Origin: Alphaproteobacteria bacterium
GTDB taxonomy: Bacteria > Pseudomonadota > Alphaproteobacteria > Bin95
Direction: 5' to 3'
Assembly: GCA_965205265.1 (NCBI GenBank)
Contig: CBDBGH010000003.1
Coordinates: 3,424,001 to 3,488,000 of the forward strand
Length of the DNA stretch: 64,000 nucleotides
This document shows, piece by piece, positions 1-38,050 of the stretch (positions within the stretch are counted from its first letter, which is position 1; the number at the start of each line of letters is the position of its first letter). Made by a program: the position numbers and the translations under genes. The notes beneath the pieces were generated by a model. It worked only from the letters and a program-made list of their open reading frames with translations. It ran no database searches and was not told the origin of the DNA.

Positions 1-14
1 GGCGCGCGGCGCTG

Positions 15-13783: not shown

Positions 13784-15480
13784 GTGGCGGTTCTATCGGA
13801 GGTGGCGGTCGACATCGTGGCGGCGGAGGACGAGGCCCGCTTCCGCGATCTGATGGATGCGCACCACTATCTCGGCGCGGTACCGGGGATGGGCGAGACG
13901 ATGCGCTATGTGGCGCATGATCGGGGGCGCTGGCTGGCGCTTGTTGTGTTCTCGGCGCCGGCGCTGAAGTGCGGCGCGCGCGACCGCTGGATCGGTTGGG
14001 AATACGGCGTCCAGTTCGGTCGCCTGCACCTGGTGACCAACAACGCGCGCTTCCTGATCCTGCCCGGCGGCCCGCCCAATCTGGGCTCGCGGGTACTGCC
14101 GCTGTGCACGCGCCGTCTGGTCCGCGACTGGCCGACCCGCTTCTGTCACGAGGTGCTCCTGGCGGAGACCTTTGTCGACCCGGCGCGGTTCCGGGGCACG
14201 GTCTACCGCGCGGCCAACTGGATCGAGGCCGGGCGCACACGCGGTTTCGCCCGCGGCGGGGCCGGCTACAGCGCGCACGCCAGGCCCAAGCTCGTGTTCC
14301 TGCACCCTCTGCGCCGGGACGCGCGGGCCCGGCTGCGCGCCGCCTCACTCGACCCCTGCTTGCGACATGGAGTGCCGAAGATGACGCTCACCGCCGCACA
14401 GATGCGATCCCTGCCCGAGGTCTTCCAGAACATCGACGATCCCCGTCGCCGCCAGGGCCGGCGCCACGCGCTGCCCACGGTGCTGGCGCTGGCCGTCGCG
14501 GCGACGCTGTGCGGCATGCGCGGCTACAAGGCGATGAGCGAATGGGTCGACGATCTCAGCCCCAGGGTGCTGCAGCGCTTCCGCGTGCGCCGCCGTGACG
14601 GGGTGTACCGCCCGCCCAGCCTGTCGGCGATGCGCAGCCTGCTGATCCGCGTCGATCCGGCCCAGCTCGACGCCGCGCTGAGGGCCTGGCACGAGACCCA
14701 CGGCTCGGGTGACAGCGCGCTGGCGATCGACGGCAAGACCATCCGCGGCGCCATCGACGACGAGGGATGCCAGGCTCATGTGCTCGGCATCGTGGGCCAC
14801 GACACCAAGGCGCCCTGGGGTCAAAAAAAGTCGGCATGAGGCCGGATGCCGGCCAAGGCGAGAAACGCACCAACGAGATCGGCACCGCCATCCCCTTGCT
14901 CGAGACCCTGCCCAACATCGCCGGCCGCACCGTCACCGCCGATGCCCTGCTCACCCAGCGCGCGCTGGCTTCCTGTCTCATCGCCCGCGGCGCCGATTAC
15001 CTGTTCACCGTGAAGGGCAACCAGAAGACCCTGCTGAGCGATATCCGGCTTCTGCTCGACGAAGACATCGCCAGCCGCGCGCCGGACTTTGAGGACCAGA
15101 GCCCGAAGCCCTAGCACGGCCGCCGAGAGAAGCGCTCCATCTGGGTCTCGGGAGAGCTCAACGATTATCTCGACTTCCCCGGCGTCGGTCAGATCTTCGC
15201 CGTGCGCCGCGAAACCGTCGAGGTCAAGTCCGGCAGGCGACGCAGCGAGATTGCCTACGGCGTCACCAGCCTGACCTCCGGGGCCGCATCGCCGCAACGC
15301 CTGCTCGCCCTCAATCGCGGGCACTGGACCATCGAGGCCACCCACCACATCCTCGATTGGAGCTTCGACGAAGATCGAAGCCGCATCCGCGCGGGCCACG
15401 GGCCGGAGAACATGACCCTGCTGCGCCGCTTCGCCATCGGCCTCATCAAGGGGCGCAGGCTCGCCGTCGCCGAGGTGAGT
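13784..15480 (+). pseudogene. DUF4338-ISAs1 transposase fusion, with -1 frameshift site and premature stop
   Basis: DUF4338 motifs (HHYLG, RDRWIGW, NNARFLILP, AETFVD..RFRGTVYRAANW), then DPRRRQGRRH, LAIDGKT, TNEI, TADALLTQ, FTVKGNQ, RGHWTIE..H.ILDWSFDED; TAG at 15112-15114 before HGR; start and end approximate. Confidence 0.8.
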
Positions 15481-15720
15481 GCTCATGCCCGGATGACGCC
15501 GCCGCCGACTCTCAGGCTCAGCAGGCTCCCTGTAGGGCAGAACGATAGCGGCCAAATCCAGCGCCCGCCAACCACGAAAACGACAACGCAAGCGCGCAGG
15601 CCATCATCAAACGCTCCGGGCCGGCAACGAAAATCAGAACGAATTGGCCGTGCCCTGCCGGGGCTTGCATGAGCCATGACGGCACGCTACCAATATGATG
15701 GCACGCTTGGAGACAGGACG

Positions 15721-15981
15721 ATGGCGACGATCAACGTCAGACAGCTCGACGACGATGTGGTGGCCCGCCTCAAGCGGCGCGCCTCGTCGAACAACCGTTC
15801 CCTGGAGGGCGAGGTGCGCCACATCCTGGAATGCGCATCCGACGATGACATGGCGGCGAAACGCGCCGCGTTCCTGGAGGCGTCGGACCGGCTGCGGGAG
15901 AAGACCCGGAGCCGCAGACAGACCCCGGCGGAAGTGCTGATCCGCGAGGACCGCGACCGCGGCCACCGCGACGACTTCTGA
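15721..15981 (+). CDS. FitA/VapB-like RHH antitoxin
   Basis: MATINVRQLDDDVVARLKRRA...RSLEGEVRHIL; stop overlaps the toxin start. Confidence 0.85.
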   Translation: MATINVRQLDDDVVARLKRRASSNNRSLEGEVRHILECASDDDMAAKRAAFLEASDRLREKTRSRRQTPAEVLIREDRDRGHRDDF

Positions 15982-16409
15982 TGCGCTTCGTCGTCGATGC
16001 GAGCGTGGCGGTCAAGCTGCTGGTCGACGAGCCGGATTCGGATGCCGCGCGGGACCTGGCGGCGAGCGGCGAGGCGTTGCACGCGCCGCGCCTGATGGCT
16101 TCGGAGGTCGCCACTGCGTTGTGGCGCAAGGCGCGGCTGGGCCAGATCGGGCGCGCCGATGCCGGCGCTGCCATGGCCTTGCTTGCCGACATGCCGGTGC
16201 GCTGGCACGGCGACGAAACCGTCAGCGCGGACGCGGTGCGGCTGGCGCTGGCTCTCGACCGTCCGGTTTACGACTGCGTGTATCTCGCGCTCGCGCACCG
16301 TATCGGCGCGACGGTGGTGACGGCGGACCGGCGATTCGCGACGGTCGTTGCGCCGACCGATCACGGCGGGGCCGTGATGACGCTGGCAGACCATGCGGAA
16401 ACGCGATGA
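15981..16409 (+). CDS. vapC: VapC PIN-domain toxin
   Basis: VVDASVAVK, E, YDCVYLALA, VTADRRF PIN motifs. Confidence 0.9.
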   Translation: MRFVVDASVAVKLLVDEPDSDAARDLAASGEALHAPRLMASEVATALWRKARLGQIGRADAGAAMALLADMPVRWHGDETVSADAVRLALALDRPVYDCVYLALAHRIGATVVTADRRFATVVAPTDHGGAVMTLADHAETR

Positions 16410-16582
16410 CCACGGAATTTTGTCGATCATCCCCCTGGCGCGGCATGCCGCGCCAGGGATGGACGGCGGCATGCAGGGGCATGATTGGATGCAGGAAACC
16501 CCATACATGGCCGGTTTGACAGGGCCGGATCTCAGGCCCAGACCGGCTCCCGGAAGCATGGTGCTGCGGGAGTTGCCGGGAG

Positions 16583-16804
16583 ATGCCGGAGAGCGGGGAG
16601 CGCGGGATTGCCGCTACGGGCGGCGCGGCGGCGAACGACAACCCCGGCCCGGGGGCCGGGGCAGGTGGCGAGGCGGAGGCGCGGGTCGATGCCGCCGTGG
16701 CGACGCTGGCCCGGCTGCTCGGGCGGCGCATCGCGCGCGAGCAATTCGACAGGCGCGCCGCGGCCAACGACAATGCACCGACCGGGGAGGCCGGCGAGAG
16801 ATAG
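16583..16804 (+). CDS. Small hypothetical protein upstream of recombinase
   Basis: GGGAG RBS; LARLLGRRIARE core flanked by two AANDN motifs; ends 13 bp before the recombinase start. Confidence 0.55.
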   Translation: MPESGERGIAATGGAAANDNPGPGAGAGGEAEARVDAAVATLARLLGRRIAREQFDRRAAANDNAPTGEAGER

Positions 16805-16817
16805 GAGACCTTTCATC

Positions 16818-18501
<1,684 letters not shown>

Positions 18502-18630
18502 TCTCGCGGAGATTTGCGCATCACGCCGCCTGACGTGCGCTGGAGTATGATAAAGCAAGGTATAGAAAGACTTTTCGGGTTCGTCAACTGCGACTCCTGA
18601 CAGCTGGCGACATCTGGAAGTTGATTCCGT

Positions 18631-18651
18631 GTGTTGACGCAAGTGTTGACG
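18631..18651. repeat. Direct repeat GTGTTGACG x2, possible integrase arm-type sites
   Basis: GTGTTGACG-CAA-GTGTTGACG between the att fragment and the integrase start. Confidence 0.5.
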
Positions 18652-18680
18652 TTTTGCCCGCGCGGTGGCACGATGCCCCC

Positions 18681-20000
18681 ATGCAACCGACTTCCGGAAA
18701 ACGCACCGCCAGGGTGCGCACGACGCTCACCAAACGCTCCGTGGAGACGCTCCAGCCTGCCGAGCGCTCGTGGATCGCCTGGGACGACCGGTTGACCGGC
18801 TTCGGCGTCCGCATCCACCCGGCGGGCACCCGGACCTTCATCGTCAACTACCGCGCCGGCGACGGCGGCCGGAAGGCGCCCAACAAGCGCGTCTCGCTCG
18901 GTCGCTTCGGCGCGGTCACCGTCGACCAGGCGCGCAGGAAGGCGCAGGAGATCCTCGGCAAGGTTGCCGGTGGCAACGATCCGGCCGGGGAACGCGCCGA
19001 GGCTCGCCGCATGCCCACGCTCGGCGAGGCCTTCGAGGACTACATGAAGGCCAATCCCGAGCGGTCGAAGCGCACCGACGAACTCTACCGCTACGAGGCA
19101 AACCGCTATCTCGGCGACTGGCTCGCCCGTCCCCTCGACCTGATCGCCCGCCGGGACGTCGAGGCCCGCTTCAACCGCATCACCGCAGACCACGGCTGGT
19201 CGCCGGCCAACCGGGCGATGTCGCTGTTGCGCTCGATCTATCGCCGGCCCTGCGTCGACCAGGAGGGACTGCGCAATCCGGTCGATCTCTGGCTTGCCGG
19301 CGGCGGCAAGTTCCACCGCAAGGCGCGGCGCAAGATCTCGGCGCCTTCGGAAGTGCTGCCGTGCTGGCGCCGGGGCATCGAGGTCGAGGTCCACAACCCG
19401 GCGATCCGCGACGCGCTCTGGTTCGGGCTCTACACCGGCATGCGCCGCGAGGAGGTGTTGACCCTGCGCTGGGAGCGGATCGACAGCGAGGCCCTCGCCT
19501 TCCGGGTCGAGGAGACCAAGACCGGCGTTCCGCTGGAGCTTCCCGTCACCCGGCAGCTCGCGGCTATTCTCGAACGGCGCCGGGCGGCGTCCGCAGACCT
19601 GCCCGACTGGGTTCGGGAGTGGGTGTTCCCGTCGCCCACAAGCGCGACCGGCCATGTGCAGGATCCGCACCATCTCTACACCCGCATCGGCAAGGCCGGC
19701 GGGGCGAAGTTCTGGTTTCACGGGCTGCGCAACTGCTTCATCACCGTCGCCGAGCGCGAGCTGATGCTGCCGCCCTCGCTGACCAAGCGACTGGTCAACC
19801 ATGCCCGGCCCAACGACGTGACCGAGGGCTATGCCGCCGACTGGACCCTTGCCCAGTTGCGCGAGCCGGCCCAACGGATCGCCGACCGGATCGAGGCCCT
19901 GATGACCTCGGCGGCGCCGACCGCAGATGCTTCCCGTGTCGCTCCGCCATCCGGGGAATGCTCCGAACCGGTCGATGCGAAGAAATCCGCCGGCCTGTGA
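18681..20000 (+). CDS. Tyrosine integrase with N-terminal arm-binding domain (DUF4102/P4-like)
   Basis: WDDRLTGFGVRI..G.RTF arm domain; TGMRREE, KTG, HGLRN, LVNH, TEGY catalytic residues. Confidence 0.92.
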   Translation: MQPTSGKRTARVRTTLTKRSVETLQPAERSWIAWDDRLTGFGVRIHPAGTRTFIVNYRAGDGGRKAPNKRVSLGRFGAVTVDQARRKAQEILGKVAGGNDPAGERAEARRMPTLGEAFEDYMKANPERSKRTDELYRYEANRYLGDWLARPLDLIARRDVEARFNRITADHGWSPANRAMSLLRSIYRRPCVDQEGLRNPVDLWLAGGGKFHRKARRKISAPSEVLPCWRRGIEVEVHNPAIRDALWFGLYTGMRREEVLTLRWERIDSEALAFRVEETKTGVPLELPVTRQLAAILERRRAASADLPDWVREWVFPSPTSATGHVQDPHHLYTRIGKAGGAKFWFHGLRNCFITVAERELMLPPSLTKRLVNHARPNDVTEGYAADWTLAQLREPAQRIADRIEALMTSAAPTADASRVAPPSGECSEPVDAKKSAGL

Positions 20001-20221: not shown

Positions 20222-20388
20222 TGCGGCGCGTCAATCAAGCTGAGACGTTTGCGTCAATCAGGATGAGACGGGGGAAGGCGGCGGCCTGGAACGCAGGGAG
20301 GGCGTAGCCCGACCGGAGTTCCGGGCCGCCGGCTCGAAAAATTTCCCCCGGGCCTTCTGGCGGCCAGGGCCGGCCGGGCGAACGGTGA

Positions 20389-22757
<2,369 letters not shown>

Positions 22758-23122
22758 GCCGCCGCCTGCTCAGGTAGAGCGGCCACGACAATCAGGGCCC
22801 GCGGGGATCGTCTCCGCGCGCCGTCTCTTCTCCGACCCGACGGCCTGCCGCGACAATCAAAACCATTCCCGAAAACACTGTTTGTCGCGCCGCGACAATC
22901 AAAACCGGAAACCGCTTGCAATCCACCCCCCGCGCGGCAATCATCAACTCGCCGCTGCCGCCGGGAATCTCATCCTGATTGACGCGCAGCTCTCACCCAG
23001 ATTGTCGCGCCATAGTAGCCTGATCTGAAGGGGCACGTATCAGCGACGACGGGGGCTCCAGCTTGTATTAGACGCCGGTCCCCCTTACGTTGCCACCCGA
23101 CGAAGCCAAACCCCGACGTCGT

Positions 23123-24601
23123 ATGTTCTCTATCCTCCATGTGTCCGACCTGCACAGGTCGGAGGCCGAACCGATATCCAACCAAGCTCTGATTGCGTCT
23201 CTACTGGCGGACCAAGGCCGATTTTCCCTCGAGACTCCGCCGATTCGCCAACCCGATGCGATGGTAGTAAGCGGCGATATTGTCGCTGGGGTACCGCTGG
23301 GGGAACCGGACTATGTCAACTCGCTTAAGGAACAGTACGCGATTGCTCAGGACTTCCTGGTCCGACTGACTGAACGCCTCTTTGGGGGCGACCGTACGCG
23401 CGTCGTATTGGTCCCGGGAAACCACGACTGCTGCTGGAACACTGCGATTAGCGGAATGACACCGGTGCCGGAGGATGACACTCCGAGGGACTTGGTAGGC
23501 AAGTTGGAGTTCCCCGATTCTCCGTTCAGGTGGAGTTGGCATGACCGAAAGCTCTACAGAATTTCGGATCCCGATTCATATGCGCGCAGGCTGGACAACT
23601 ACTGGGACTTCGTGGAGGAGTTCTATGTGGGTTCGGACCTGGCGTTCCCAATTCGACGGGACACTGGATACAACCTGTTCGAAATGAACGGCGGACAGAT
23701 CCTGGTAGCCGCCTTTGAGTCGCTCCATGGAAACGACTGCTTTTCTTCCAGGGCGCACTTCGAACCGGAAGCTGTGGCGAGTGCAGCGTTGCGGCTAAAC
23801 GACGAACGGAGGTACTACAACCTCCGCATCGCACTTTGGCATCACGGACTACACAGCCAACCATCGTACCGATCGGATTATCTCCCCATCAGTTCCGTAT
23901 ACGAGCTTATTGGGCACGGCTTTCGACTCGGTCTCCACGGTCACCAGCACTTCGCGGAGATCGGTTCCCATTACGTCCGCGTTCCGGGCGAGCCAGAGAT
24001 GGCAGTGGTGTCGGCGGGTTCCCTGTGCGCAGGAGCGAGGGAACTTCCTCGAGGAGTCAACCGCCAATACAACGTGGTCGTCGTATCCGACGACTATGAC
24101 AAAATTGACGTGCATGTGCGGGAAATGACGCGGGGAAACCACTTTATGCCGAGCAGCGGAGCGTCGGGATTTGCGAACGGACTCGTCCAATTGCAGCTCT
24201 CGTCGCCCGGTGCGAACGGAAAGCCAATGATCGACATCGACTATACACGCCGCAACGAACTTATCATGAAGGCCGAGTCCCACCTGCGGGTTGGTCGTCC
24301 GGCCGAGGCGTTTGGAATTCTCAGTGGAATTGACTGCGAGAACGAACCATATGCCCGCCGGTTGTTGATCCAGGCAGCCGAGCAGTCGGAACAGTGGGAA
24401 GATCTTGTGGCTGTTCTTTCTGATCCGCAAAACTCTGAAGAAGTAGTCCAGTTAGTCGAGGCGCTCACTCGGCTTCGAAGGATTGAAGACGCCATAGCCT
24501 ATTTGCGAGAGTCTGATCGGCCCCCTTTGGCAGATCATGTCCGACGAGATCTGCAACGCCGGCTTGAACGGCGAGCGGCAATTTCCGGGAGGAAAGCGTG
24601 A
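23123..24601 (+). CDS. Calcineurin-like metallophosphoesterase with C-terminal TPR-like helical domain
   Basis: ILHVSDLH, VSGDI, VPGNHD, WHH, LHGHQH motifs; alternative TTG start at 23090. Confidence 0.85.
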   Translation: MFSILHVSDLHRSEAEPISNQALIASLLADQGRFSLETPPIRQPDAMVVSGDIVAGVPLGEPDYVNSLKEQYAIAQDFLVRLTERLFGGDRTRVVLVPGNHDCCWNTAISGMTPVPEDDTPRDLVGKLEFPDSPFRWSWHDRKLYRISDPDSYARRLDNYWDFVEEFYVGSDLAFPIRRDTGYNLFEMNGGQILVAAFESLHGNDCFSSRAHFEPEAVASAALRLNDERRYYNLRIALWHHGLHSQPSYRSDYLPISSVYELIGHGFRLGLHGHQHFAEIGSHYVRVPGEPEMAVVSAGSLCAGARELPRGVNRQYNVVVVSDDYDKIDVHVREMTRGNHFMPSSGASGFANGLVQLQLSSPGANGKPMIDIDYTRRNELIMKAESHLRVGRPAEAFGILSGIDCENEPYARRLLIQAAEQSEQWEDLVAVLSDPQNSEEVVQLVEALTRLRRIEDAIAYLRESDRPPLADHVRRDLQRRLERRAAISGRKA

Positions 24602-25306
24602 ACACAAAAAAAATTCCGCTCCAGGTCAAGAGTGATCGCGTCATCGAGTTGTTCGCCCGAGACATATACCAGTCTCCGCTTTCACTGCTTCGCGAGAACG
24701 TCCAGAATGCCTTCGATGCCATTCTGATGAGGAGGCGTGCCGGTGACGAATTCTCACCGAAAATTGATATTTGCCTATGCGCTGAGACAGTAACGGTCAG
24801 CGACAACGGCAACGGAATGACGCCTGACGAGCTGGAGAAAAACTTCTGGTATGCGGGCAACAGCGGAAAGAACACCGAAGACGCCAAGAATGCAGGGGTC
24901 GTAGGCACGTTCGGCATTGGAGCTATGGCGAACTTCGGCATCGCCGAGCGGTTGCAAGTGGAAACGGAGAGCTCGGCTACCGGCGAGCGGTCTCGAAGCA
25001 GTGTAGATAAGGAAGATCTGTCGATCAATCAGGAGTGCATCGATCTCATCTTATTGGACTCGCGGGACGAGCCCGGTACGACAGTAACGGCATATCTTGC
25101 ACCCGACGAGCGACTGGATGTCGACGAGGCCCGTCGATACCTATCGGACTTCGTGTCACTTCTTGCGGTTCCCGTGTATGCGCGTTTCAGTAAGTCCCGG
25201 CCGGTGATTACGGAAAGTCCCGGCCGGCATGACCGGGGCGATTTGAGTTCGGCTTTCGGGTGCGCCGACTCGGCGTCTACCCCCTGGCATTTTGCCGGGG
25301 GGTGGC

Positions 25307-26860
25307 ATGCCGGGACGGAAGCAGACGAGACGAACGACAGTGAAGGACGTCAGGGCGATCCTGCGGCTGAGCCATGGGCAGGGTCTGTCGGAGCGCGAGG
25401 TCGCGGGGCGGCTGAAGCTCTCCAGGGCGACGGTGTCGACCTATCTTCTTCGGGCCCGGGAGGCGGGCCTGTCGAGCTGGCCGCTGCCGGCGGTCTACGA
25501 GGACGACGCGGTGCTGGAACAGTTGCTGTTCCGGCGCATGGGCCGCCCGCCGCGGGATACGCGCCAGCCGCACTGGCCGACGGTGGCGGCCGAGCTGAAG
25601 CGCAAGGGCGTGACGCTGAGCCTGCTGTGGCAGGAATACCGGGCCGCGCATCCGGACGGCTACGGCTATACCTGGTTCTGCGACGCCTTCAGGGCCTTCG
25701 AGCGCCGCACGCATGCGAGCTGGCGCAACCGGCACGAGGCCGGCGCGGTGATGCAGACCGACTATGCCGGCCAGACGGTCGAGATCGTCGATCCCGAGAC
25801 CGGCGAGATCCACGAGGCGCAGATCTTCGTCGCGGTGCTCGGCGCCTCGTCCTACACCTTCGCGACCGCGAGCCTGACGCAGCGCCTGCCGGACTGGATC
25901 GCTGGGCAATGCGAAGCGCTGGCCTTCTTTGGGGGCGTGCCGAAAAGCATTGTCTGCGACAACCTGAAGGCGGGGGTGGCGAAGCCGCTCTGGTTCGAGC
26001 CGACGCTGAACGCGACCTTCGCGGCGCTGGCGGAGCACTACGACACCACCGTCCTGCCGACGCGGCCCCGAAAACCCCGGGACAAGGCGAAGGTCGAGGT
26101 TGGCGTGCAAGTGGTCGAGCGCTGGATCCTGGCCCGCCTCAGGAACCGGCGCTTCTTCTCCCTCGGGCAGCTCAACGCGGCGATCCGCGTCCTCCTGGAC
26201 GAACTCAACGACCGGCCCATGCGCCATCTCGGCCAGAGCCGGCGCCAGATGTTCGAGGCCATCGAGCGCGCCGCGCTGGCGCCGCTGCCGAAGACCCCCT
26301 TCGAATACGCCGAGTGGAAGACCGCGAAGGTCCACCCCGACTACCATGTCGATGTCGAGCGCACCTTCTACTCGGTCCCTCACAGCCTGATCGGGCGCAC
26401 GGTTCGGATCCGCCTCACCCGGCGCACGGTCGAGGTCTTCCATAGCCACAGGCGCGTCGCCGCCCATGCACGCCGGTCTCCCTATGGCGGGCATGTCACC
26501 GTTGCCGCTCATATGCCCAGCGCGCATCGCCGCTATGCCGATCGCACCCCGGCAAGCCTGATCGGCAGGGCAAGACGCATCGGCCCCAACACGGCCGTGC
26601 TGGTCGAGCGCATGATGCGCGACAGGCCGCATCCCGAGCAGGGCTATCGAAGCGCCATGGGCGTCATATCGCTCTCCCGGCGATACGAGGCCGAAAGGGT
26701 CGAGGCCGCCTGCGAGCGCGCGCTCACCATCAATGCGCTCAGCTACTCCTCGCTCACCGCCATCCTCCGGTCCGGCCTCGACCGCGCCGCGCCCGAGCGT
26801 GAGCCCCTCCTGCCCCTGCCGGCGCACGACAACATCCGCGGCCCCGCCTACTACCGATGA
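25307..26860 (+). CDS. istA: IS21 transposase
   Basis: [50 protein letters not shown]. Confidence 0.93.
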
Positions 26861-26874
26861 ACGAAGGACTTCCC

Positions 26875-27651
26875 ATGCTGACACATCCGACCCTCGACCA
26901 GATGCACGCCCTTGGCCTCAAGGGTATGGCCGAAGCCTGGCGCGACATGGCCGAAAAGGGCCAGGCATCCGAACTCGACCGCGAGGAATGGCTCGCCCTC
27001 ATGCTCGACCGCGAAGCCGCAACACGCGCCGACAGGCGGCTCACCAACCGCCTCCGGCTGGCCAGGCTGCGCTTCCCCGAGGCCTGCATCGAGGATATCG
27101 ACTTCGATCCCGCCCGCGGCCTCGATCGCCGCAATATCCTCTCCCTCGCCCAGGGCGAATGGCTCAAGACCCACGACAATCTGATCCTGGTCGGCCAGAC
27201 CGGTACCGGAAAGACCTGGCTCGCATGCGCCTTCGGACATCAGGCCGCAAGGCTCGACCGCTCTGTCCTCTATGTCCGCATGCCCCGTCTCTTCGAGGAC
27301 CTCGCCATGGCCCGCCTCGACGGAAGGCTCCCCAGGCTCATCGACAAGCTCGCAAGGGTCCAGCTCCTCATCCTCGACGACTGGGGTACACACGGCCTCG
27401 CCGACCGCCAGAGGCTCGATCTCCTCGAAATCTGCGAAGAACGATACCGTCGGCGGTCCACCCTCATCACCGCACAGCTCCCCGTCGCCAAATGGCACGA
27501 CCTCATCGGCGAAGCCACCGTCGCTGACGCCATCCTCGACCGGATCGTCCACAACGCCCACCGCATCGACCTGAAAGGCGAAAGCATGCGAAGGAAAAAC
27601 GCCAGGCCCGACTTGACCCCGGCCGCCGCCGCGGAAGACAATCCCGGCTGA
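26875..27651 (+). CDS. istB: IS21 helper ATPase
   Basis: [10 protein letters not shown] start, [34 protein letters not shown]. Confidence 0.93.
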
Positions 27652-29666
27652 CCAAAACCAGGCGCCCGGAGCCACGCTCAAGGCCGGCCGCGACTTAATG
27701 AAATCCGCGGCCGGGACTTAGTGAAATACCCGGCCGGAATCACTGAAATCCGCACCGTGTACGTGAACGGAATCCAGGCGAGCGGTCGATGCGTCGAGGA
27801 AATCGTACCCCTTCCGCCCATTTCCTGGCGTGGACAAAGCTACGAGACTGCGGGCCGTCTTGCTGCGAATGTGGACTTGGTTGTCGCACAAGACGGTGCC
27901 GTGTGGGCGCGCTTCGACAGTATTACCTGGTCGGGATACGAGATGCAGGGTTCGATGACTCTGCGGAGCGATGTGCCGGGTCTGCGTACGTACCGGAACG
28001 GATTTGGATTGGCAACCGTGGGCGCGGCGACCGCCTACCAGTTCGGCGGCGTCGTAGACCTAATGGAGTTGTACCCGACAGCGGGAAGGGAAGCGCTGAC
28101 ATCTTCGAGCATGCAGTTGCTCCAGTCGATGCTTACTCATGTCGACGAAATCGTGTCTCTATTGTTGTCGAGCAGGCATGAGTCCGACTCTAGCACTGCA
28201 TTCATGAACTGGGTCGTGAATAACTCCAGATATGACCTATGTGACCGAATCCGGATCAGCACGGACGGAGATGAACATCTTGAATTGAATATAGTGAAGG
28301 CGAATGCGGACAGGGAGTTTCGCATCTATTCCGGTGCTGATCGAGGTTTAATTGAACAACTGTCGAGTGACGATTCACCTTTGTTACTTTTTGCGCGCTA
28401 CGACCCGAGACGACGCTGCCAACGCGAGTACATCCAGCGGTACTGCGCCGAACATGTCTCCGAAATTGTGGACGAGCCCCAAGTCACTGAGACACTCCCT
28501 GATTCGAGTTACAGTCATTCGGAGTATGGGACCGCGTTCCGAATCCAGTCTATCCTTGACAAGGATTACCTACTTTCGACAGAGGTACACTTTGGCCACA
28601 TAACCCACCGAGTTCCAGTAATCGCCAATGAGGTAGACAACAAAGTAATCATCACCGTCGAGCGCGACTTGAGCGCAATCGACCTAATCGTTGGATTGTA
28701 TGAAAACGAATACTCCGCATTCGGTGCGATGGTTGGCGATTTCGTTCGCGGCGTCGTCTTCCCGCGCATATCTCGTTACGTTCCAACCAGTCAAACTCAC
28801 GGCACTCAAGCGTTTTTGCAAACGATTCGACGCCAGCGGGAGGCGTTTGAGTACGAGCGGGACGACGTCACGGAGTTTCCAGATCTAGCATTTTGGGACG
28901 ATGTTCGCAACGACCGTATTAGCATCGCCGAGGCAATCAAGCGAACAATGGCCACGTCCCGTAGCGACGTTCAGGTGCTCGACTCGGCGTCCGCCGCGAG
29001 TATGGGTGAGGTATTGCCCGATGTAGCGGCCAATCAGCATGCGCTACAAGGGGACAACCAAGACGATGAATTGGCCCTTGGTGCGCTTCCTGCCATTGTC
29101 CGTTCCGACATATCTTGCGGTGCCAAACTGTTGACAATTCCGGTCGAGGAACGCGATTTGGCCGGATACAGGTGCTTTCTGGCGCTTGGCCGTAAAGCAA
29201 GGGAGGACAAGGCGGAGTTTTTCCTCCAACCACACACCACATCTATCGTGTGGGGTGGGCAGCGAGTGTTGTTTATTTTTGCCCACCGCTCCGAGGACTA
29301 CGGGTTGTATTATGATCTCGAGTCACGAAAGCTGATTTCCAACAAACCGGGTGGAGGACGTTATCCGACCTGCACAATTTTTCTGGCTAACCAAGTCTAC
29401 ATACCAATTCCAGTCGACATTCAGTCGTGCTTTCTACTTTCAGAAGGTGAACGCAAACGGTTTTTGGTCAGGGATGATCTGCTCTCGGTCGGCCCCAATA
29501 TCCGTGAATGACCATGGGAGTCCTGACCATAACAGCACTATCGCTTGGCGGAGGCCGTTCAGGCTTATCCGGCACGTTCAGGACAACACTAACCAATCTA
29601 AAGTCACAGCGGTGAACACATCTAAAGAAAGATTGAGGCGATGATAGGTTTCGTTATCATTGAGGG

Positions 29667-30143
29667 ATGGAATCCTTGACCCGCATTATATGGCAATGGC
29701 TTCTTAGCCTATCGGGTCTGTTCACCGTTATCGGCACAGTTCATGAGCTCTTTACTCGCCCCAATACAGACGTGTTGGCGGAGTCCATGGGCGCATATGT
29801 GAGCCTGCATAGCATTTACCTCGGCGTTTTGGGGGTAGGCGTTGTTCTAACTGTGCCTGCTGCCTTGGCCATTTGGCGTTGGTGGGTCGACACGCACAGC
29901 CTCAAGTCGAAATTTCTGCGACTGGAGACAAAACTGGAGAGAAGGGCGAGTCTTGAAGTTTATGACATCGCCGATATACGGGATCTACGATTTGCCCTTG
30001 CGGAACTGGGAATCGAATATCCTCTGGACGGTATTGACGCGAGGGACAGGCAATACGTTACAAAGGATTTGCTGGCCGCGTGTCGCAACGGGAAAGTGAA
30101 ATACGCTCGAACGTCATGGCAGCGGCGCGGAAAGCCGGATTGA
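29667..30143 (+). CDS. Hypothetical membrane protein (two predicted TM helices)
   Basis: GAGGG RBS; hydrophobic segments WLLSLSGLFTVIGTV and IYLGVLGVGVVLTVPAALAIW. Confidence 0.6.
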   Translation: MESLTRIIWQWLLSLSGLFTVIGTVHELFTRPNTDVLAESMGAYVSLHSIYLGVLGVGVVLTVPAALAIWRWWVDTHSLKSKFLRLETKLERRASLEVYDIADIRDLRFALAELGIEYPLDGIDARDRQYVTKDLLAACRNGKVKYARTSWQRRGKPD

Positions 30144-30194
30144 TGGTCGAATTCAAACAGGGGGGAATGCGATGATCCAAAACGTGCCCGTACA

Positions 30195-31238
30195 CTACGG
30201 TAGGCGCGCTGTTGCAGAGCGCTGTCTGCCGCCATCCTCGGGAAGGGGTTCCGCGTTATCCTCCGCGTGCCCATTCCAAAGCAGCCCCGGATGTGGAATG
30301 CGATAGTACCCGTCAGCGTCCTTCTTTGAGTTTTTTGGCTTCGGCGCCACTGTCGTCTTCTCAAACCGTCCCCTGGCGCCGCGCAGATACGATTCGACGA
30401 CTTCCGCGCATACCCACTTGCGTCCAAGCCGTTCGGCGACCTCGCCCGTAACGCAGCTCCCGGCGAATGGATCCAGAACCACATCGCCCGGATCGGTGAC
30501 CATCCTCACGAAATACTCCGGCAGGGCGGCCGGGAAACGGGCGGGATGCACCTTGATCCCGTTGTCCTTGCAGTAGCGCAGATAGCTGCTGTTGCTTTCG
30601 GTATTCGGAATGGCGATCAGGTTCGGAGGGATCGCGGCGCCATTGTCGGTGGAAAACTTGCTGCTGATATCGTGTCCCGATGGACGCAGCATTGGCTTGT
30701 AGCCATTGTTCAGCAAGCTCTTCATGCTGTCACTGTAAGGTTGCAGGACCCGGCGATTGCTCGCGCGCGGCCAAGGCGTCTTGGACAACCACCATACGGT
30801 ATTGATCCCGTCCTTGACCCGGATTCGCCTTACGTTGACCCATTCCGCTGGCGTAGGAAGCTTCGACGGATTCCACCAGTAGAACTCCTGAGCCAGATGA
30901 AATTCGTATTCCTCGCACAGCATGATCAACAGCTTGAAATGATAGAGGCTGCGCACGGGTATTCCGGGCTTCCACGCGCCGCCGAGATCGATCACAAGGC
31001 TTCCGTCGTCCCTGAGGATGCGGCGGAACTGCCTCGCGAAATCGCGAAACCATTCGAGATAATTATCCTCCTGTTCGTTTCCGTAGTCCTTCTTGCGGGT
31101 CAACGCGAACGGCGGACTCGTCATTACCAGAGCGACAGAAGCCGACTTTCTGTTCTTCATGACCTCCAGGCTGTCGCCATGATAGACGCAGCCAAGGGCA
31201 GTCCGATGGAACACGCGAGGGGCCTTGCTGCCTGTCAT
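30195..31238 (-). CDS. Beta-class N4-cytosine/N6-adenine DNA methyltransferase
   Basis: TSPPF catalytic motif N-terminal, HPARFP, VLDPFAGSCVTG SAM motif C-terminal. Confidence 0.93.
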   Translation of the reverse strand: MTGSKAPRVFHRTALGCVYHGDSLEVMKNRKSASVALVMTSPPFALTRKKDYGNEQEDNYLEWFRDFARQFRRILRDDGSLVIDLGGAWKPGIPVRSLYHFKLLIMLCEEYEFHLAQEFYWWNPSKLPTPAEWVNVRRIRVKDGINTVWWLSKTPWPRASNRRVLQPYSDSMKSLLNNGYKPMLRPSGHDISSKFSTDNGAAIPPNLIAIPNTESNSSYLRYCKDNGIKVHPARFPAALPEYFVRMVTDPGDVVLDPFAGSCVTGEVAERLGRKWVCAEVVESYLRGARGRFEKTTVAPKPKNSKKDADGYYRIPHPGLLWNGHAEDNAEPLPEDGGRQRSATARLP

Positions 31239-31254
31239 CTTCCGGCCTCCTTCT

Positions 31255-32622
31255 CTAGAGATCGAGTTTCTTCAGGTTCATGGCGTGGCGCGCCTCACGT
31301 TCGAACGCTTGCACTATTTCCGCCGGTCGTTCGCTTATCTCGTTCAGATCCCCTCCGTCCAGCATGACAATGGCAAGATTTGAGTCGGCCATGATTCTAT
31401 TGGCGTATCGCCGGGCCTCGCTGCCGACTTCGCCGGTGGTGACAATGACAATCGCATTGCTCTTCAGGAAATGGGTAAGGCCCACCTCCTTTGCGACATC
31501 GTCCAGAGACACGCGCGCAGTGTTCTTGCACTGGATTTGCCAGCGGGAGAATACCAAGCGGGCGCTCTCGAAAATCAGATCGACCTCCGCGCCGCCTGTC
31601 TGATTGGCGCGCAAGCGGGTCGCAACATAGGTCATGTCGAGGACACGCATGATCTTGAAGGCGAGCGCTTCGAGAGCGAGTCCGGCTCGATATCGATCTT
31701 TGCTCTTCATTTCTTTCAAGATCGTGGAAAGCGGCGTTCGCAATAGCGCCAGAAGCTTCGGCTCGGTCTGCTTCCGAAGCTGCTCGAGAAGCGGTTCGAC
31801 CACATCCGCGATCAATTTTTCCGTAGGCGACACCTGAAAAGGCTTGGCTCCTCGTCCAGCCGTGGTCTTCTCGGCCGTGATGTATCCTGCGCCCTCCAAG
31901 TCGTTGAGAACCAGCTTCGGAAGACTCTTTTCCGGAAACTTCACGCCGTAGGTCGCCGCGGCCAGTTTCGCAACCGCATTCGCGGGCTGCGGCTCAACGG
32001 TCCCCATGTTCGCGAGCGCCCTCAGAAAGGCCCGCTGCTCGACGGTCAGGTCGCCCAGAACTCCGAACTCGTCCGGACCAATGCCGAGGATGTACTCGAC
32101 TCGACGCTCGTTGACTTGCCACCGGCTGCCGGTGAACACTCCAGCCTTCGCAAGCCACAGCCGCATCATGCTCGGATGTTTGCCGCCCGACGGATAGTGG
32201 ATGCCGCGGGCTGCAAGGCCCTCCCGAAGGGTGGTCAGGTTCACCTGTTCGCCCGCCGCGACCATGTCGCGAATACACTGGACCAGTGTCATTCCATGAA
32301 GATGGAGGAGAATATGTCTGGCCAGTCGGTCGTGCAGAGCATCCTCGTCATTGCGCAGGTCGTTGAGTTCCTGACCGAACGGGGTCAGCGCCGCATCCCG
32401 ATCGATGATCCCGTAGGCGATCATCCCGAGCTTCGTGTTATTGGCGAGCTTGGCGCGGTTGTAGGCGCTGGTCTTGTGCCCCTCAAACCAGGCTTTCCGA
32501 ACGGCCTCCTCGAAGGCCCGCCAGTCCCCGCCATGGAGGGCCGCGAACTCCAGCACCTTCGGAAGCTCGATCTGCGAGGGCGAAAACTCGCTGCCGAAGG
32601 GCAGGTCACTTTTTCTGCTCAC
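31255..32622 (-). CDS. Restriction endonuclease with C-terminal Mrr-like PD-(D/E)xK domain
   Basis: GLALEALA..GGAEVDLIF..WQIQCKN..AIVIVTTG; directly upstream of the MTase; GTG 32622 with purine-rich RBS. Confidence 0.75.
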   Translation of the reverse strand: MSRKSDLPFGSEFSPSQIELPKVLEFAALHGGDWRAFEEAVRKAWFEGHKTSAYNRAKLANNTKLGMIAYGIIDRDAALTPFGQELNDLRNDEDALHDRLARHILLHLHGMTLVQCIRDMVAAGEQVNLTTLREGLAARGIHYPSGGKHPSMMRLWLAKAGVFTGSRWQVNERRVEYILGIGPDEFGVLGDLTVEQRAFLRALANMGTVEPQPANAVAKLAAATYGVKFPEKSLPKLVLNDLEGAGYITAEKTTAGRGAKPFQVSPTEKLIADVVEPLLEQLRKQTEPKLLALLRTPLSTILKEMKSKDRYRAGLALEALAFKIMRVLDMTYVATRLRANQTGGAEVDLIFESARLVFSRWQIQCKNTARVSLDDVAKEVGLTHFLKSNAIVIVTTGEVGSEARRYANRIMADSNLAIVMLDGGDLNEISERPAEIVQAFEREARHAMNLKKLDL

Positions 32623-32835
32623 CAATCCTGCCTTTCCTGGCTCGTCAGTGCGCTTCCCGGCTGCTTCCCGCGCGGCATGCCAAAGGAAAGGGCCGAATGC
32701 GGAGACGGCCTTCCGGATGACCCACGCAGTGGACACATCGTTGGCTTCGGCAAGAGCGGCGATGCGCTCGTAATCAGATTTCTCGAAGCTGACGCTCAGT
32801 CGGGCGGTCTGCTTGTTCTGCCTGGGCCGACCCAT
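32623..32835 (-). CDS. CopG/RHH regulator segment, in frame with the endonuclease (no stop between)
   Basis: MGRPRQNKQTARLSVSFEKSDYERIAALAEANDVSTAWVIRKAV. Confidence 0.7.
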
Positions 32836-32953
32836 GGCATCGAACCCCTGTCTTCTGGTCTGGTGTATTTTACACCAGATGAACGGAGGAACAATCCCCA
32901 CGATGCTGGGGAACGATGCCTGCGTCTCGCCAAAGGTGGATATAGACAGCTAA

Positions 32954-34584
32954 CCCACTCTATTCGGCACGGGGCGATGAAGTAGCGGCGAACGTTGCCC
33001 AAGTCGTTGGATTCGGATAGAAGTTCGTTGTCCAGTGCACTTCTGCCGAGGCAACGAAAGCGCCACGCCCGCCATGACCGAAGATACCTTCCTCCCGTTC
33101 GATCTTCCAGCCGTAAGCCGCAAGAAGGTAACCGCCGATTTCGCGGGCGGTTTGATCTCGTCGGACGGGGGCCTGGTCCTGCCGCGCGCGGCGGAACATC
33201 GGCTCGGGCTGGCCGAGGCGCTGGTCGGCTGCATCCGGGAATGGCGCGACCCCGACCGGGTGGTTCACTCGCTGGCGGCGATGCTGATGTTTCGCATGTT
33301 CGCGATCGCCTGCGGCTACAAGGACGCCGACGCCCTTCGACAAGCTCAGGAGCGACGCGCTCAGGGCGGATCCGCTGTTCAAGCTGGCCGTCGGCCGGAC
33401 GCCGGAGAGCGGCCGCGATCTGTGTTTCCAGCCGACCATGAGCCGGCTGGAGAACGCGCCCTCGCGGATCGAGGTGGCGCGTCTGACGGCCGCCCTGGTG
33501 GACATCTTCTGCCGTTCTTTCCCGGCTCCGCCGGCAACGATCACGCTCGATATCGACGACACCTGCGACCGGATCCACGGCCATCAGCAGCTGTCGCTGT
33601 TCAACGCCCACTACGACACAAGGTGCTTCCTCCCAGTCCACGTCCATCAGTCGAGAGCGGCAGGCCGGTGGCGGTCCTCCTGCACCCCGGCAAGACGCCG
33701 TCGGACGTCGAGGTCCGCGCCCTGATCAAGCACTTGGTGCGGCGCATCCGCCGACACTGGCCGCGCACCCGGCTGACCTTCCGCGGCGACAGCCATTACG
33801 GCCGCCGCGAGGCGATGGGCTGGTGCGAGGCGAGCGGCGTCGACTACATCTTCGGCCTGGCCGGCAACGCCGTGCTGCACGGCCTCGCCTACGAGGTCGG
33901 AGACGATATCAAGGTGCGCGGCGCCGAGGCCGGGGCGGAGAGGATGCGCGGCTTCGCCAGTTTCGATTATGCCGCGGCATCGTGGAGCCGCCAGCGCCGC
34001 GTCGTCGCCCGGCTGGAAGCCACGACGCGCGGCTTCGACGCGCGCTACATCGTCACCTCGCTCACCGGCGAGCCCCGCTATCTCCATGAAGGAGTCCATT
34101 GCGCGGAGGGGACACGCGGAAAACCTGATCAAGCGGCATCGCGCCCAGCTCGCTTCCGACCGCACCTCCTGCCAGAGCCCGCTCGCCAACCAGTTCCGCC
34201 TAGTGCTGCACACCGCGGCCTGCTGGCTGATGCTTGCGCTCCGCGACGCGGTGCCGCGCCGAATGCCGCTCGCCTGGACCGAGTTCACGACCCTCCGGCA
34301 GAGCCTACTCAAGATCGGCGCCCGGGTGGTCGAGAAGGCCGCCCGTGTCCGCATCCACTTCGCCTCGGCCTGTCCCAACGCCGCCCTGTTCCGCCTGCTC
34401 GTGGGCCGGCTCGCGACCTCGGGCCCCTGATCCCCGGGGCGGTGTGCCCCGCGAACCCGAGACCCTTGAACCCCCAACCCAGACACCGACAATCTCAGAT
34501 CCCGGCACCCCACAAGGCGCCGATCGGTAGACCCTGCGCGCTCCCAATTAACCGATAAAAGCGCCGTCTCGCGAATAAGTACGG
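32954..34584 (+). mobile_element. IS1380-family element (degenerate)
   Basis: Imperfect IRs CCCACTCTATTCG / CGAATAAGTACGG; 4-bp TSD CTAA. Confidence 0.75.
33074..34430 (+). pseudogene. IS1380-family transposase, multiple frameshifts
   Basis: DFAGGLISSDGG, ITLDIDDT..IHGHQQL, FRGDSHY, RGHAENLIK, LLKIGARV spread over several frames. Confidence 0.88.
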
Positions 34585-37024: not shown

Positions 37025-38050
37025 ATGACCGAACCCGGGACGATTTCCGCCGACTACACGCTGCGCCCGAGTGAGCTTGTGGCGACGCTGGCGCTGCTGG
37101 TCGAGGCCCGCCAGCCCTGCATCGTCTGGGGCCCGCCCGGGGCGGCCAAGAGCGCCATCGCGCGGCAGGTCGCGGCCGAGGCCGGACGCGCCTATGTCGA
37201 CATCCGTGCGCTGCTGCTCGATCCCGTGGACCTGCGCGGCATCCCCTGGCGCGACACTGACGGCCGCACCCGCTGGGCGCCGCCGGCCTTCCTGCCACCG
37301 GCGGACGATCCCGGCCGCTGGCTCATCAACCTGGAAGAACTGCCCTCGGCCGTGCCGCTGGTGCAGGCCGCCCTCTACCAGCTGGTCCTCGACCGGCGGG
37401 TCGGGGAGTACGAACTGCCCGAGGGCGCCTCGCTGATCGCCTGCGGCAACCGCGAGGGCGACAGGGGCGTGGTCCACCGCATGCCGACGCCGCTGGCCTC
37501 GCGCTTCGTCCACCTGGAGGTCGCGGTCGACGCCGACGACTGGCTCGCCTGGGGCGCCGCCAACGGCATCGCCCCTGAGGTGCTGTTCTGGATCCGCATG
37601 CGCCCGGACCTGCTGCACGCCTTCGATCCGCAGGCGAAGGAGAAGGCGTTTCCCTGTCCCCGCACCTGGGAGATGGCCTCCGGCATCGTCAACCGGCGCG
37701 TCGGCCTCGATGCGGGCGTCGAGCGCGCCCTGTTCCGGGGCACGGTCGGCGAGGCGGCGGCGGTGGAGTTCTCGGCCTTCCTCAAGGTGTGGAGGGAACT
37801 GCCCCATCCCAAGGCGGTGCTCGACGATCCCGCGGGCGCCCCGGTGCCGGAGAACGCCAGCGCCCTGATCGCGCTCTGCGGCGCGCTCTACCGCATGGCC
37901 GACGACATCACGCTCGACGCCATCGTCACCTATGCCGGACGGCTGCGGCGCGAGGTCGGCGAGTTCCTGGTCGGCTCCTGCGTCCGCCGCGACCCGGACC
38001 TCCAGCGCACGCCCGCCTTCATCCGCTGGGCGGCGGCGCGCACGCCATGA
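37025..38050 (+). CDS. MoxR-like AAA+ ATPase
   Basis: WGPPGAAKS, DLRGIP, LINLEEL, QAALYQLVLDRRVG, ACGNR..D, PLASRFVH, PCPRTWE. Confidence 0.88.
   Translation: MTEPGTISADYTLRPSELVATLALLVEARQPCIVWGPPGAAKSAIARQVAAEAGRAYVDIRALLLDPVDLRGIPWRDTDGRTRWAPPAFLPPADDPGRWLINLEELPSAVPLVQAALYQLVLDRRVGEYELPEGASLIACGNREGDRGVVHRMPTPLASRFVHLEVAVDADDWLAWGAANGIAPEVLFWIRMRPDLLHAFDPQAKEKAFPCPRTWEMASGIVNRRVGLDAGVERALFRGTVGEAAAVEFSAFLKVWRELPHPKAVLDDPAGAPVPENASALIALCGALYRMADDITLDAIVTYAGRLRREVGEFLVGSCVRRDPDLQRTPAFIRWAAARTP

Follow-up and report, generated by a model that had tools for sequence, protein, structure and literature searches.

A conserved two-gene cassette of a calcineurin-like phosphoesterase and an HSP90-like ATPase: a candidate anti-phage module interrupted by IS21 in an alphaproteobacterial genome

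Introduction

For the Hsp90-like defence proteins of prokaryotes, Nicastro, Burroughs, Iyer and Aravind reportedly proposed in 2023 that the ATPase acts as a conformational switch analogous to the STAND NTPases. In the available part of a later text, Nicastro et al. 2023 is cited as the source on Hsp90-like proteins of prokaryotic defence that are coupled to effectors of the calcineurin-like or HD type, in which the effector is fused N-terminally and the C-terminus is rapidly evolving and modular (10.64898/2026.09.30.754977). The subject of the present analysis is a pair of genes related to this kind, located in a 64,000-nucleotide stretch of an alphaproteobacterial contig (CBDBGH010000003.1, positions 3,424,001 to 3,488,000), hereafter the window. 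Gene 1 encodes a calcineurin-like metallophosphoesterase and gene 2 an HSP90-like ATPase of the GHKL type, which is split by an insertion sequence of the IS21 family. The first-pass annotation of the window had presented the pair as an undescribed system. In this broad form the claim has to be withdrawn, since the combination of an Hsp90-like protein with a calcineurin-like effector has already been predicted in print, as the accessible portion of the same text indicates (10.64898/2026.09.30.754977).

Phosphoesterases related to gene 1 have been described in phage defence. According to the available parts of three reports, the enzymes of DS-9A/MisA/PUA-Cal and of DS-8 cleave pyrophosphate or phosphodiester bonds of free nucleotides and thereby stop phage replication, in reactions such as NAD+ to nicotinamide mononucleotide (NMN) and AMP, or deoxynucleoside diphosphate (dNDP) to monophosphate (dNMP) (10.1101/2025.11.05.686725, 10.64898/2026.01.15.699771, PMC13092281). 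The effector clade is named 'Calcineurin-CE' in the second of these, in a passage that cites Nicastro et al. 2023 (10.64898/2026.01.15.699771). For DS-8, the available part of the third states that mutations show both parts of the protein to be needed (PMC13092281). The domains of the pair are unmentioned in PMC13552941.

Results

The two genes form a conserved cassette

Of 178 ATPase relatives on contigs drawn from one genome per species, the best 80 supplied the homologous loci. In all 80 loci a gene 1 homolog lies directly upstream of the ATPase gene on the same strand, the homolog being cut by the contig end in four. Both open reading frames (ORFs) are full length in 62 loci, with an overlap of 4 nt in 47 of these and of 1 nt in 7. 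In the window, the two genes stand head to tail on the + strand and had been annotated as translationally coupled. The overlap on which that claim was based is present: the TGA of gene 1 (24599-24601) and the GTG start of gene 2 (24598) together read GTGA, and a GGAGG is found a few bases upstream of the GTG.

A third conserved gene is absent, the next largest cluster of flanking ORFs being present in 4 loci. The pairwise identities of the two proteins correlate (r = 0.94), which reflects co-inheritance and is no independent test. A fused form was not found among the top 150 of 1233 gene 1 relatives, these 150 being at most 520 aa long; nor was one found at E <= 0.001 among proteins of 1023-2920 aa, which is weak evidence. 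The pair is supported as a strictly conserved, co-inherited cassette, and the co-occurrence of homologs, which had been proposed as a check on the annotation, is borne out by the adjacency of the two genes at every locus.

Departures from the full-length arrangement were seen in L009, L029, L030, L046, L053 and L061, where one gene is shortened or broken into two ORFs, which may reflect either genuine decay or frameshifts of the draft assemblies. In Peteryoungia aggregata, a 215-aa ORF with a HATPase_c_3 domain (L004:3190-3837, - strand) lies just upstream of the pair.

The family reaches across more than twelve phyla; its loci belong to Proteobacteria, Actinomycetota, Chloroflexota, Cyanobacteria, Planctomycetota, Acidobacteriota, Bacteroidota, Gemmatimonadota, Nitrospirota and further groups. 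Its distribution is accessory and patchy: the ATPase was found in one of 60 relatives of the source genome at E <= 1e-30. The pair is also carried by four conjugative megaplasmids, three from Pseudomonas aeruginosa and one from Rhizobium. The P. aeruginosa megaplasmids are of the IncP type, conjugative and ~450 kb in size; on one of them, pPUV-9 (locus L084, 420627-424396), the pair has as its neighbours an 'ABC-three component system', an IS21 and a protein of the YaaC family.

Gene 1 is a calcineurin-like phosphoesterase with relatives in phage defence

Residues of gene 1 are numbered on the longest ORF, of 503 aa, which starts at a TTG (23090); in the alignment, the ATG start used in Table 1 agrees better with the homologs. 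The protein matches the Pfam family Metallophos (PF00149) at E 3e-11, with 44.6 bits against a cut-off of 21.5. All five calcineurin-like motifs that had been read from the sequence are confirmed, every motif residue being invariant in an alignment of 34 homologs: D20/H22, G62-D63, G110-N111-H112-D113, H251-H252 and G284-H285-x-H287. W148, W150 and D216 are likewise invariant. Together with the fold (Z 17-27), these motifs place gene 1 in the calcineurin-like metallophosphoesterase superfamily.

The AlphaFold2 model (mean predicted local distance difference test, pLDDT, 89.4) shows a phosphoesterase sandwich at residues 12-375, followed by seven helices at residues 383-502 with pLDDT values mostly of 85-97. 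The annotation had described this tail as resembling tetratricopeptide repeats (TPR). That wording holds as a structural description and not as a family assignment, because the TPR_14 match reaches 18.6 bits, below its cut-off of 23.5. The family profile also gives weak matches to designed alpha-repeat proteins.

The closest fold is that of Bacillus subtilis YydB (PDB: 9a6c), with a Z of 26.8 and a root-mean-square deviation (rmsd) of 3.2 Å over 297 residues, 5 Z above all others. It is followed by SMPDL3A (Z 21.8), Lmo2642 (21.2), Rv0805 (20.7), GpdQ (20.2) and purple acid phosphatases (~19); Mre11 appears at rank 49 with a Z of 17.1. Fold comparison alone was informative here, as searches of gene 1 against PDB chains by sequence, single or profile, gave no meaningful match.

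Among 18,950 NCBIfam models, the best two for gene 1 are DS9_1_antiphage (1.1e-8) and DS8_antiphage (1.3e-6). When the family profile was compared by hhalign with a genuine DS9_1 member, which has a PUA-like and a Metallophos domain and scores 464.6 bits against the cut-off of 420, the probability was 98.5% and the E-value 3.6e-15 over 288 columns, covering the whole catalytic domain. The sole control for this comparison, the PPP-type phosphatase of the source genome (locus L094), gave 0.2% and an E-value of 0.36. Judged by profile similarity, gene 1 is thus specifically related to the DS-9A/MisA anti-phage phosphoesterase, a homology that goes past the generic motifs of the superfamily and places it in the 'Calcineurin-CE' effector clade. 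It can be regarded as a member of this clade with intact catalytic residues. A PUA-like domain was not matched in gene 1 by Pfam; the true DS9_1 member, in locus L085, has one.

Further proteins of this type were met in the phylum of the source genome. In locus L086 (G070:C112), an ORF at 1-2334 (- strand) encodes a DS-8-like protein with Metallophos and NACHT domains and phosphoesterase matches of the DS8/DS9_1 type; it adjoins a C-terminal fragment of a RecQ-like helicase. Domains of the DS9_1 type were found at E <= 1e-20 in 15 of 301 genomes of the phylum, many of them in open frames of 1000-1800 aa.

Gene 2 is an HSP90-like ATPase with a conserved C-terminal extension

The N-terminal fragment of gene 2 had been annotated as a GHKL ATPase, and its match to HATPase_c_3 (9.5e-11) bears this out. 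The Bergerat motifs are invariant in the family (E33, N37, D69, G71, G73 and the G100-G108 box). The family profile matches the N domains of TRAP1, HtpG and Grp94 at 2.5e-16. In NCBIfam, residues 7-207 match NF010683, 'HSP90 family protein', at 2.4e-25, and the match to MutL has an E-value of 0.0031.

The annotation had also proposed an HtpG-like middle region. By sequence profile, run against PDB and against the HtpG of the host, only the N domain aligns and nothing past residue ~205, so this part of the claim stands on structure. An intact relative from locus L001, 91% identical to the 776-aa homolog P0002, was modelled (pLDDT 81.4) and compared with HSP90-family chains, giving Z-scores of 22-24 and rmsd values of 3.4-4.8 Å over 304-383 residues of the N and middle domains. 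Against full-length TRAP1, Hsp90 and HtpG chains the alignment covers residues 10-558 (or 10-431); the full-length alignments reach ~558 of the model and ~690-713 of the chain, at an rmsd of 8-10 Å. The invariant GGVVD..PTAGREAL of gene 2 aligns with GVVD..LNLSREML of the host HtpG, which is the loop that bears the catalytic arginine in Hsp90. The Arg-Glu pair of this catalytic loop, R303 and E304, is invariant. Gene 2 can be assigned to the HSP90 type in both its N domain and its middle domain.

Gene 2 is not the housekeeping chaperone, as the genome carries a normal HtpG: the latter scores 732.8 bits with the HtpG equivalog NF003555 (cut-off 371), gene 2 only 50.5. No second copy of the ATPase was found in the source genome.

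No HSP90 alignment extends into residues ~560-776, where a linker modelled at low confidence and several helices are found together with a beta-rich domain at ~636-770, which carries the motifs FFLQPH..WGGQ..LYYDL. This domain ranks with the most strongly conserved stretches of gene 2, with a mean column conservation of 0.78 at residues 676-700 and 0.64 at 701-725; the lowest values fall at 201-250 and 601-650. The claim of an unrecognised C-terminal domain of ~200 aa therefore holds, as neither Pfam nor PADLOC gives a match, and the ESM Atlas scores of 0.76 for residues 630-776 are under the useful range. Queried with the whole protein, the ESM Atlas gave back clusters of the family itself and, in addition, a GHKL cluster (668 aa) that is mostly viral and has similar features.

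In a library of viral structures, the gene 2 model matched a giant-virus Hsp90 first and then phage rIIA, at E ~1e-14 and a TM-score of only ~0.29. The likeness to rIIA, the 'protector from prophage-induced early lysis', was set aside, a TM-score of ~0.29 being too low to build on.

A recent IS21 insertion splits the ATPase gene

The annotated interruption of the ATPase by an IS21 with a perfect target-site duplication is present as described (Table 1). The element has istA and istB, TG...CA ends, imperfect inverted repeats and a short duplication of 7 bp, CCGTGTA, identical on both sides, and it thus belongs to the IS21 family. The intact allele can be rebuilt, as had been proposed: the two fragments correspond to residues 1-196 (89% identity) and 192-776 (88%) of P0002. 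Because they match this 776-aa homolog without gaps, the insertion is clean and falls after codon 193, which is the end of the N-terminal ATP-binding domain. A search with the C-terminal fragment returned 233 relatives, of which the intact ones are nearly all 769-788 aa long.

The same element occurs at 100% identity in three further places of the genome (C3:3524075-3526644, C3:4344738-4347300 and C3:433814-435318), two copies being near full length and one partial. Because these copies are 100% identical, the insertion is recent and the element currently active. With its ATPase split, the module in the source genome is presumably inactive, as read from its sequence.

Table 1. Features of the locus, in window coordinates
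Feature	Position	Strand	Basis
FitA-like ribbon-helix-helix (RHH) antitoxin and PIN toxin pair	15676-16409	+	Domain matches
Large serine recombinase	16485-18500		Between FitA/PIN pair and tyrosine integrase
Tyrosine integrase (Arm-DNA-bind_3 + Phage_integrase)	18621-20000	+	Pfam domains
Second, different IS21-family element	20225-23011 (approx.)	+	IstB_IS21 1e-63; 61-nt imperfect inverted repeat arms 20225-20285, 22951-23011
istA of upstream IS21 element	20416-21918	+	Product 500 aa
istB ORF of upstream IS21 element	ends 22757	+	IstB_IS21 1e-63
Gene 1, calcineurin-like metallophosphoesterase, 492 aa from ATG 23123	23123-24601	+	Pfam Metallophos, motifs, fold
Gene 1 catalytic domain	to ~24214	+	Model/domain match
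Gene 1 seven-helix repeat tail	~24236-24598	+	Model
Gene 2 N fragment, HSP90-like GHKL ATPase domain, codons 1-193 and two bases of codon 194	24598-25178	+	HATPase_c_3 9.5e-11
Target-site duplication, left copy CCGTGTA	25172-25178		Read directly
IS21-family element splitting gene 2	25179-27754	+	TG...CA ends, 44-nt imperfect inverted repeats, istA/istB
istA of splitting IS21	25292-26860	+	rve, Mu-transpos_C_2
istB of splitting IS21	26857-27651	+	IstB_IS21 2.4e-70
Target-site duplication, right copy CCGTGTA	27755-27761		Identical to left copy
Gene 2 C fragment, last base of codon 194 to stop	27762-29511	+	88% identity to P0002, fold matches
Gene 2 middle domain with catalytic Arg loop	to ~28470	+	HSP90-like structure
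Gene 2 helical region, possibly like the HSP90 C domain	to ~28854	+	HSP90-like structure
Gene 2 beta-rich C-terminal extension, after linker	~29086-29490	+	No Pfam/PADLOC match
158-codon ORF just downstream of ATPase	29667-30143	+	No Pfam or NCBIfam match
N6_N4 DNA methyltransferase	30195-31238	-	Domain match
RHH + Mrr_cat restriction-endonuclease-like protein	31255-32901	-	Domain match

Defence genes near the pair

Genomic neighbourhoods were analysed in 79 loci over the first two flanking ORFs in either direction from the pair, 286 ORFs in all, using a crude longest-ORF calling; L025, whose core was uncalled, was dropped. With PADLOC at E <= 1e-15, and with PolA and TnsB matches left out as non-defence, a match was found near the pair in 35 of the 79 loci, or in 25 when methyltransferase-only and partial matches are removed. 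The matched neighbours include DrmB/C and DrmD of DISARM, PtuA/B of Septu, a short prokaryotic Argonaute (pAgo) with SIR2-APAZ, CBASS cyclases and CapP. Type I, IIG and IV restriction, GmrSD, HmaB/C, HEC-01/05/06, AbiE, SoFic and several PDC candidates were found as well. Direct adjacency to CBASS cyclases is seen in loci L060 and L067. A Pfam search of the first 140 flanking ORFs concurs and adds resolvases, TnsA/B, TraI and transposases. The neighbourhoods are likely enriched in defence genes, in agreement with the proximity to such genes that had been proposed as a further check.

The island around the pair

The window has a G+C content of ~70%, which falls to 0.51-0.62 at ~22500-33000 and lies at 0.66-0.73 in the flanks on both sides; the two genes lie inside this lower-GC stretch, as the annotation had it. 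The restriction-modification (RM) system that it placed alongside is also there, as a methyltransferase and an Mrr_cat protein downstream of the pair. Its statement that the cargo comes right after the integrase needs correction: the integrase lies upstream and is not directly adjacent, as a second IS21-family element stands between it and gene 1.

This upstream element stops ~110 bp before gene 1, so the native upstream region of the operon has probably been lost and the promoter may have been removed with it. The intergenic region holds repeated CGCGACAATCA-like motifs, which are likely transposase binding sites. Further transposases lie downstream of the RM pair. Many insertion sequences crowd this island, and the locus is one that an IS21 disrupted recently.

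The 158-codon ORF just downstream of the ATPase is not conserved beside the pair in other loci, according to the clustering of flanking ORFs, and no tRNA gene was found in the window. An ORF at 13748-14839 (+ strand) has a DruA (Druantia) Pfam domain (3.1e-21) and a DDE_Tnp_1-associated domain, and a DDE transposase (12067-13632) adjoins it. At 37025-40432 (+ strand) lie three co-directional genes, of which the first has a weak bpMoxR match and the third a DUF2201_N metallopeptidase domain and a VWA-like DUF2201; the trio resembles systems of the MoxR-VWA type.

Discussion

A candidate ATPase-gated effector module

On balance, the pair is probably a mobile two-gene conflict module, most likely anti-phage, ATPase-gated and nucleotide-depleting. 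Gene 1 would be the effector, a binuclear metallophosphoesterase of the clade of DS-9A/MisA/PUA-Cal and DS-8. Gene 2, a paralog of HSP90, would be the sensor or switch and would take the role that the fused NACHT NTPase has in DS-8. An infection signal would then drive the ATP-dependent closure of the HSP90-like clamp, and closure would license the phosphoesterase, whose helical tail probably docks on the ATPase. The sequence data establish the domains, the catalytic residues, the linkage and joint inheritance of the genes, their accessory and mobile distribution and the defence genes nearby; from these we infer that the pair acts in defence, what its enzyme cleaves, which way regulation runs and that the two proteins bind, as well as the gating by a chaperone fold and the binding of the tail to it. 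As to regulation, the effector gene survives intact beside the broken ATPase, which suggests positive control: the ATPase would switch the effector on and would not hold back a protein that is toxic by default. A promoter lost to the upstream IS21 may, however, also account for this survival.

The docking of the tail was addressed by complex prediction, using the full-length ATPase of L001 and, from the phosphoesterase of the same locus, the tail at residues 380-494. The median score was 0.39 (runs 0.39, 0.43 and 0.03) against 0.01 for the best control; it was graded as weak support and counted neither way. In the calibration, the mark was reached by 116 of 157 solved complexes and by 2 of 215 mismatched pairs, and scores up to 0.60 among those passing include only 18 of the 157 solved complexes together with both passing mismatched pairs. 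The pLDDT of the partners was at least 80, the runs agreed in at least 0% of contacts and no interface was given.

A more far-reaching version is conceivable, if doubtful. The HSP90 paralog might be an innate immune sensor whose clamp captures a phage protein or a stalled client, and its closure might switch on the tail-docked, nucleotide-destroying phosphoesterase. Such a device would be convergent with the eukaryotic HSP90-TPR-phosphatase (PP5) and HSP90-NLR arrangements. It would be the first chaperone-fold ATPase to stand in place of STAND NTPases as an abortive-infection switch, and the C-terminal extension would represent a novel domain for regulation or for the binding of a ligand.

Several observations weigh against a nucleotide-depleting defence module. 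The scores of gene 1 are far under the cut-offs of the models that come closest, with 34.3 bits against 420 for DS9_1 (NF053862, residues 14-120 only) and 26 bits against 790 for DS8; a substrate can therefore not be transferred with confidence. On the substrate of the related enzymes two papers disagree, one naming NAD+ and the other dNTP/dNDP, as far as their available parts show. The conserved C-terminal domain of gene 2 does not fit the diversifying sensor of the published Hsp90-like systems, in the accessible description of these. At many loci the neighbours are housekeeping genes, PNPase, PolA and arginase among them, and the neighbourhood counts, besides having no baseline, come from PADLOC models that also match ordinary methyltransferases. 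The searched literature yielded no experiment on the pair and no data on protection or toxicity.

The first-pass annotation had offered a nuclease or a nucleotide-depleting effector. Of these, the second fits better, as DS-9A and DS-8 are nearest by sequence and YydB, SMPDL3A, Rv0805 and GpdQ by fold. A nuclease system would have gene 1 cut DNA or RNA in the manner of Mre11/SbcD while the ATPase clamps nucleic acid like MORC, MutL or GHKL proteins of the Tiamat type, with restriction-like degradation of incoming DNA as the outcome. It could draw on the presence of Mre11 among the fold matches, on the RM genes that are frequent neighbours of the pair, and on defence GHKL ATPases such as Tiamat, which act on DNA according to the available part of 10.64898/2026.09.30.754977. 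Yet Mre11 lies almost 10 Z below YydB and 3-5 below the nucleotide phosphodiesterases, no SbcD model of NCBIfam reached E 0.01 with gene 1, as DS9_1 and DS8 did, the ATPase groups with HSP90 and not with MutL or MORC, and Pfam detected no DNA-binding domain in the pair. We consider a nuclease system unlikely. That the pair serves the mobile element itself is unlikely as well: it would be an addiction module resembling a toxin-antitoxin system, or a counter-defence enzyme that destroys the cyclic-nucleotide immune signals of the recipient. The conjugative megaplasmids and the integrases, resolvases, TnsA/B and TraI beside the pair would suit such a role, as would the fold neighbours Rv0805 and SMPDL3A, both cyclic-nucleotide phosphodiesterases by their PDB titles (the latter also in the available part of PMC13092281), and the CBASS cyclases that directly adjoin the pair in two loci. 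Against it, one can hardly explain why an enzyme that simply degrades a signal should keep a 776-aa ATPase partner in 80 of 80 loci, and an effector gene that stays intact without its partner does not agree with a classic toxin held by the ATPase. Known anti-CBASS phosphodiesterases are small phage proteins, and a search of 50,697 phage records gave no match to the present family, which counts against this role and is neutral for the defence module.

PP5 binds HSP90 through its TPR domain, and gene 1 could in the same way be a protein phosphatase whose helical tail is recruited to an HSP90-like chaperone, acting in stress or proteostasis or countering phage kinases. In outline the architecture is the same, pairing a metallophosphoesterase fold that has a helical repeat with a partner of the HSP90 type; Hsp90-PP5 complexes (8gae) are among the structural matches of gene 2, and the complex prediction of tail and ATPase lends weak support. 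We regard this as very unlikely nevertheless, since the gene 1 profile does not align with the PPP-type Ser/Thr phosphatase of the source genome (the hhalign control given above) and no PPP phosphatase is found among the top 50 fold matches of gene 1. In addition, the extreme C-terminus of gene 2 is variable, modelled at low confidence and without a conserved acidic tail, and the patchy, mobile distribution beside a normal HtpG argues against a housekeeping role. Least probable of all is a defence system with another output, such as the hydrolysis of membrane or cell-wall phosphodiesters by GpdQ- or sphingomyelinase-like chemistry. GpdQ and acid sphingomyelinases do appear among the fold matches at Z ~20, but neither model has a signal peptide or a membrane segment, and the relatives by sequence are anti-phage enzymes that target nucleotides. 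The reading of the pair as an ATPase-gated, nucleotide-depleting module is thus retained as the best explanation.

If the pair protects against phage, HSP90-type ATPases as immune switches, so far a prediction from comparative genomics, would gain an experimental footing. The nucleotide-targeting phosphoesterase effectors newly validated in Metis / PUA-Cal-HAD and DS-8 would, if this is true, gain a third kind of regulator, and the sensing of infection by an HSP90 fold would become a tractable question. The family is compact, with two genes and ~1270 codons, and is easy to clone. On the megaplasmids the pair is annotated only as 'metallophosphoesterase' and 'ATP-binding protein', and it is therefore invisible at present to defence finders.

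Comparison with known systems

The earlier statement that the pair matches no named system agrees with PADLOC v2.0.0, which has no full-length model for either protein. Gene 1 matches PDC-S60, which may be of the DS-8 kind, at E 3.9e-6 over the first ~100 residues only. The N-terminal fragment of gene 2 matches TmtA (9.3e-6, residues 15-115) and REase_II (2.1e-5) in the ATPase domain only, and the C-terminal fragment gave no match at E <= 0.1. Tiamat (TmtA) is likewise a defence protein with an N-terminal Hsp90-like ATPase, but it is encoded by a single gene with DUF3684 and NOV_C / PD-(D/E)xK nuclease domains, none of which Pfam finds in gene 2. With HtpG, HSP90 and TRAP1, gene 2 shares the N-terminal Bergerat ATPase, the middle domain with its Arg loop and possibly a region like the C-domain; it differs in the added C-terminal extension of ~200 residues, in being accessory and mobile, and in its score (50.5 against 371 bits).

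YydB, the closest structure to gene 1, is modelled together with the product of a neighbouring gene, YydD, and Foldseek aligns it at E 1.2e-17 over 543 columns. This likeness has to be read with the origin of 9a6c in mind, which is an integrative model from crosslinking mass spectrometry and deep learning and not an experimental structure, and the sequence identity is 16%. YydD, which we take to be a P-loop ATPase, did not appear among the relatives of gene 2 in profile or fold searches, and a literature search on YydB and YydD returned nothing useful.

Among the systems with effectors of the same clade, Metis / PUA-Cal-HAD (MisA-MisB; DS-9 of DefensePredictor) shares with the pair the catalytic domain, as judged by hhalign (98.5%), and the two-gene operon with the phosphoesterase first. 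Gene 1 differs in having no PUA-like sensor, it is paired with an HSP90-like ATPase where Metis has a HAD phosphatase, and its score is 34 against 420 bits. In DS-8, an effector of this clade is joined to a large NTPase switch, as a metallophosphatase with NACHT. That NTPase is a P-loop STAND protein fused in cis, whereas gene 2 is a Bergerat-fold paralog of HSP90 encoded in trans.

The nearest relatives in outline are the Hsp90-like proteins of Nicastro et al. 2023, as far as they are described in the text available. They have in common with the pair an HSP90-type GHKL ATPase, a calcineurin-like, nucleotide-targeting phosphoesterase and a predicted immune context. The odds that the split operon already stands in the 2023 catalogue are perhaps even. 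In the present family, the effector bears its own helical tail and is encoded by a translationally coupled gene that is separate in 80 of 80 loci, and the C-terminal domain of gene 2 is among its best conserved parts. For these two reasons, and within the published description accessible here, the pair is taken as a new form of the predicted kind.

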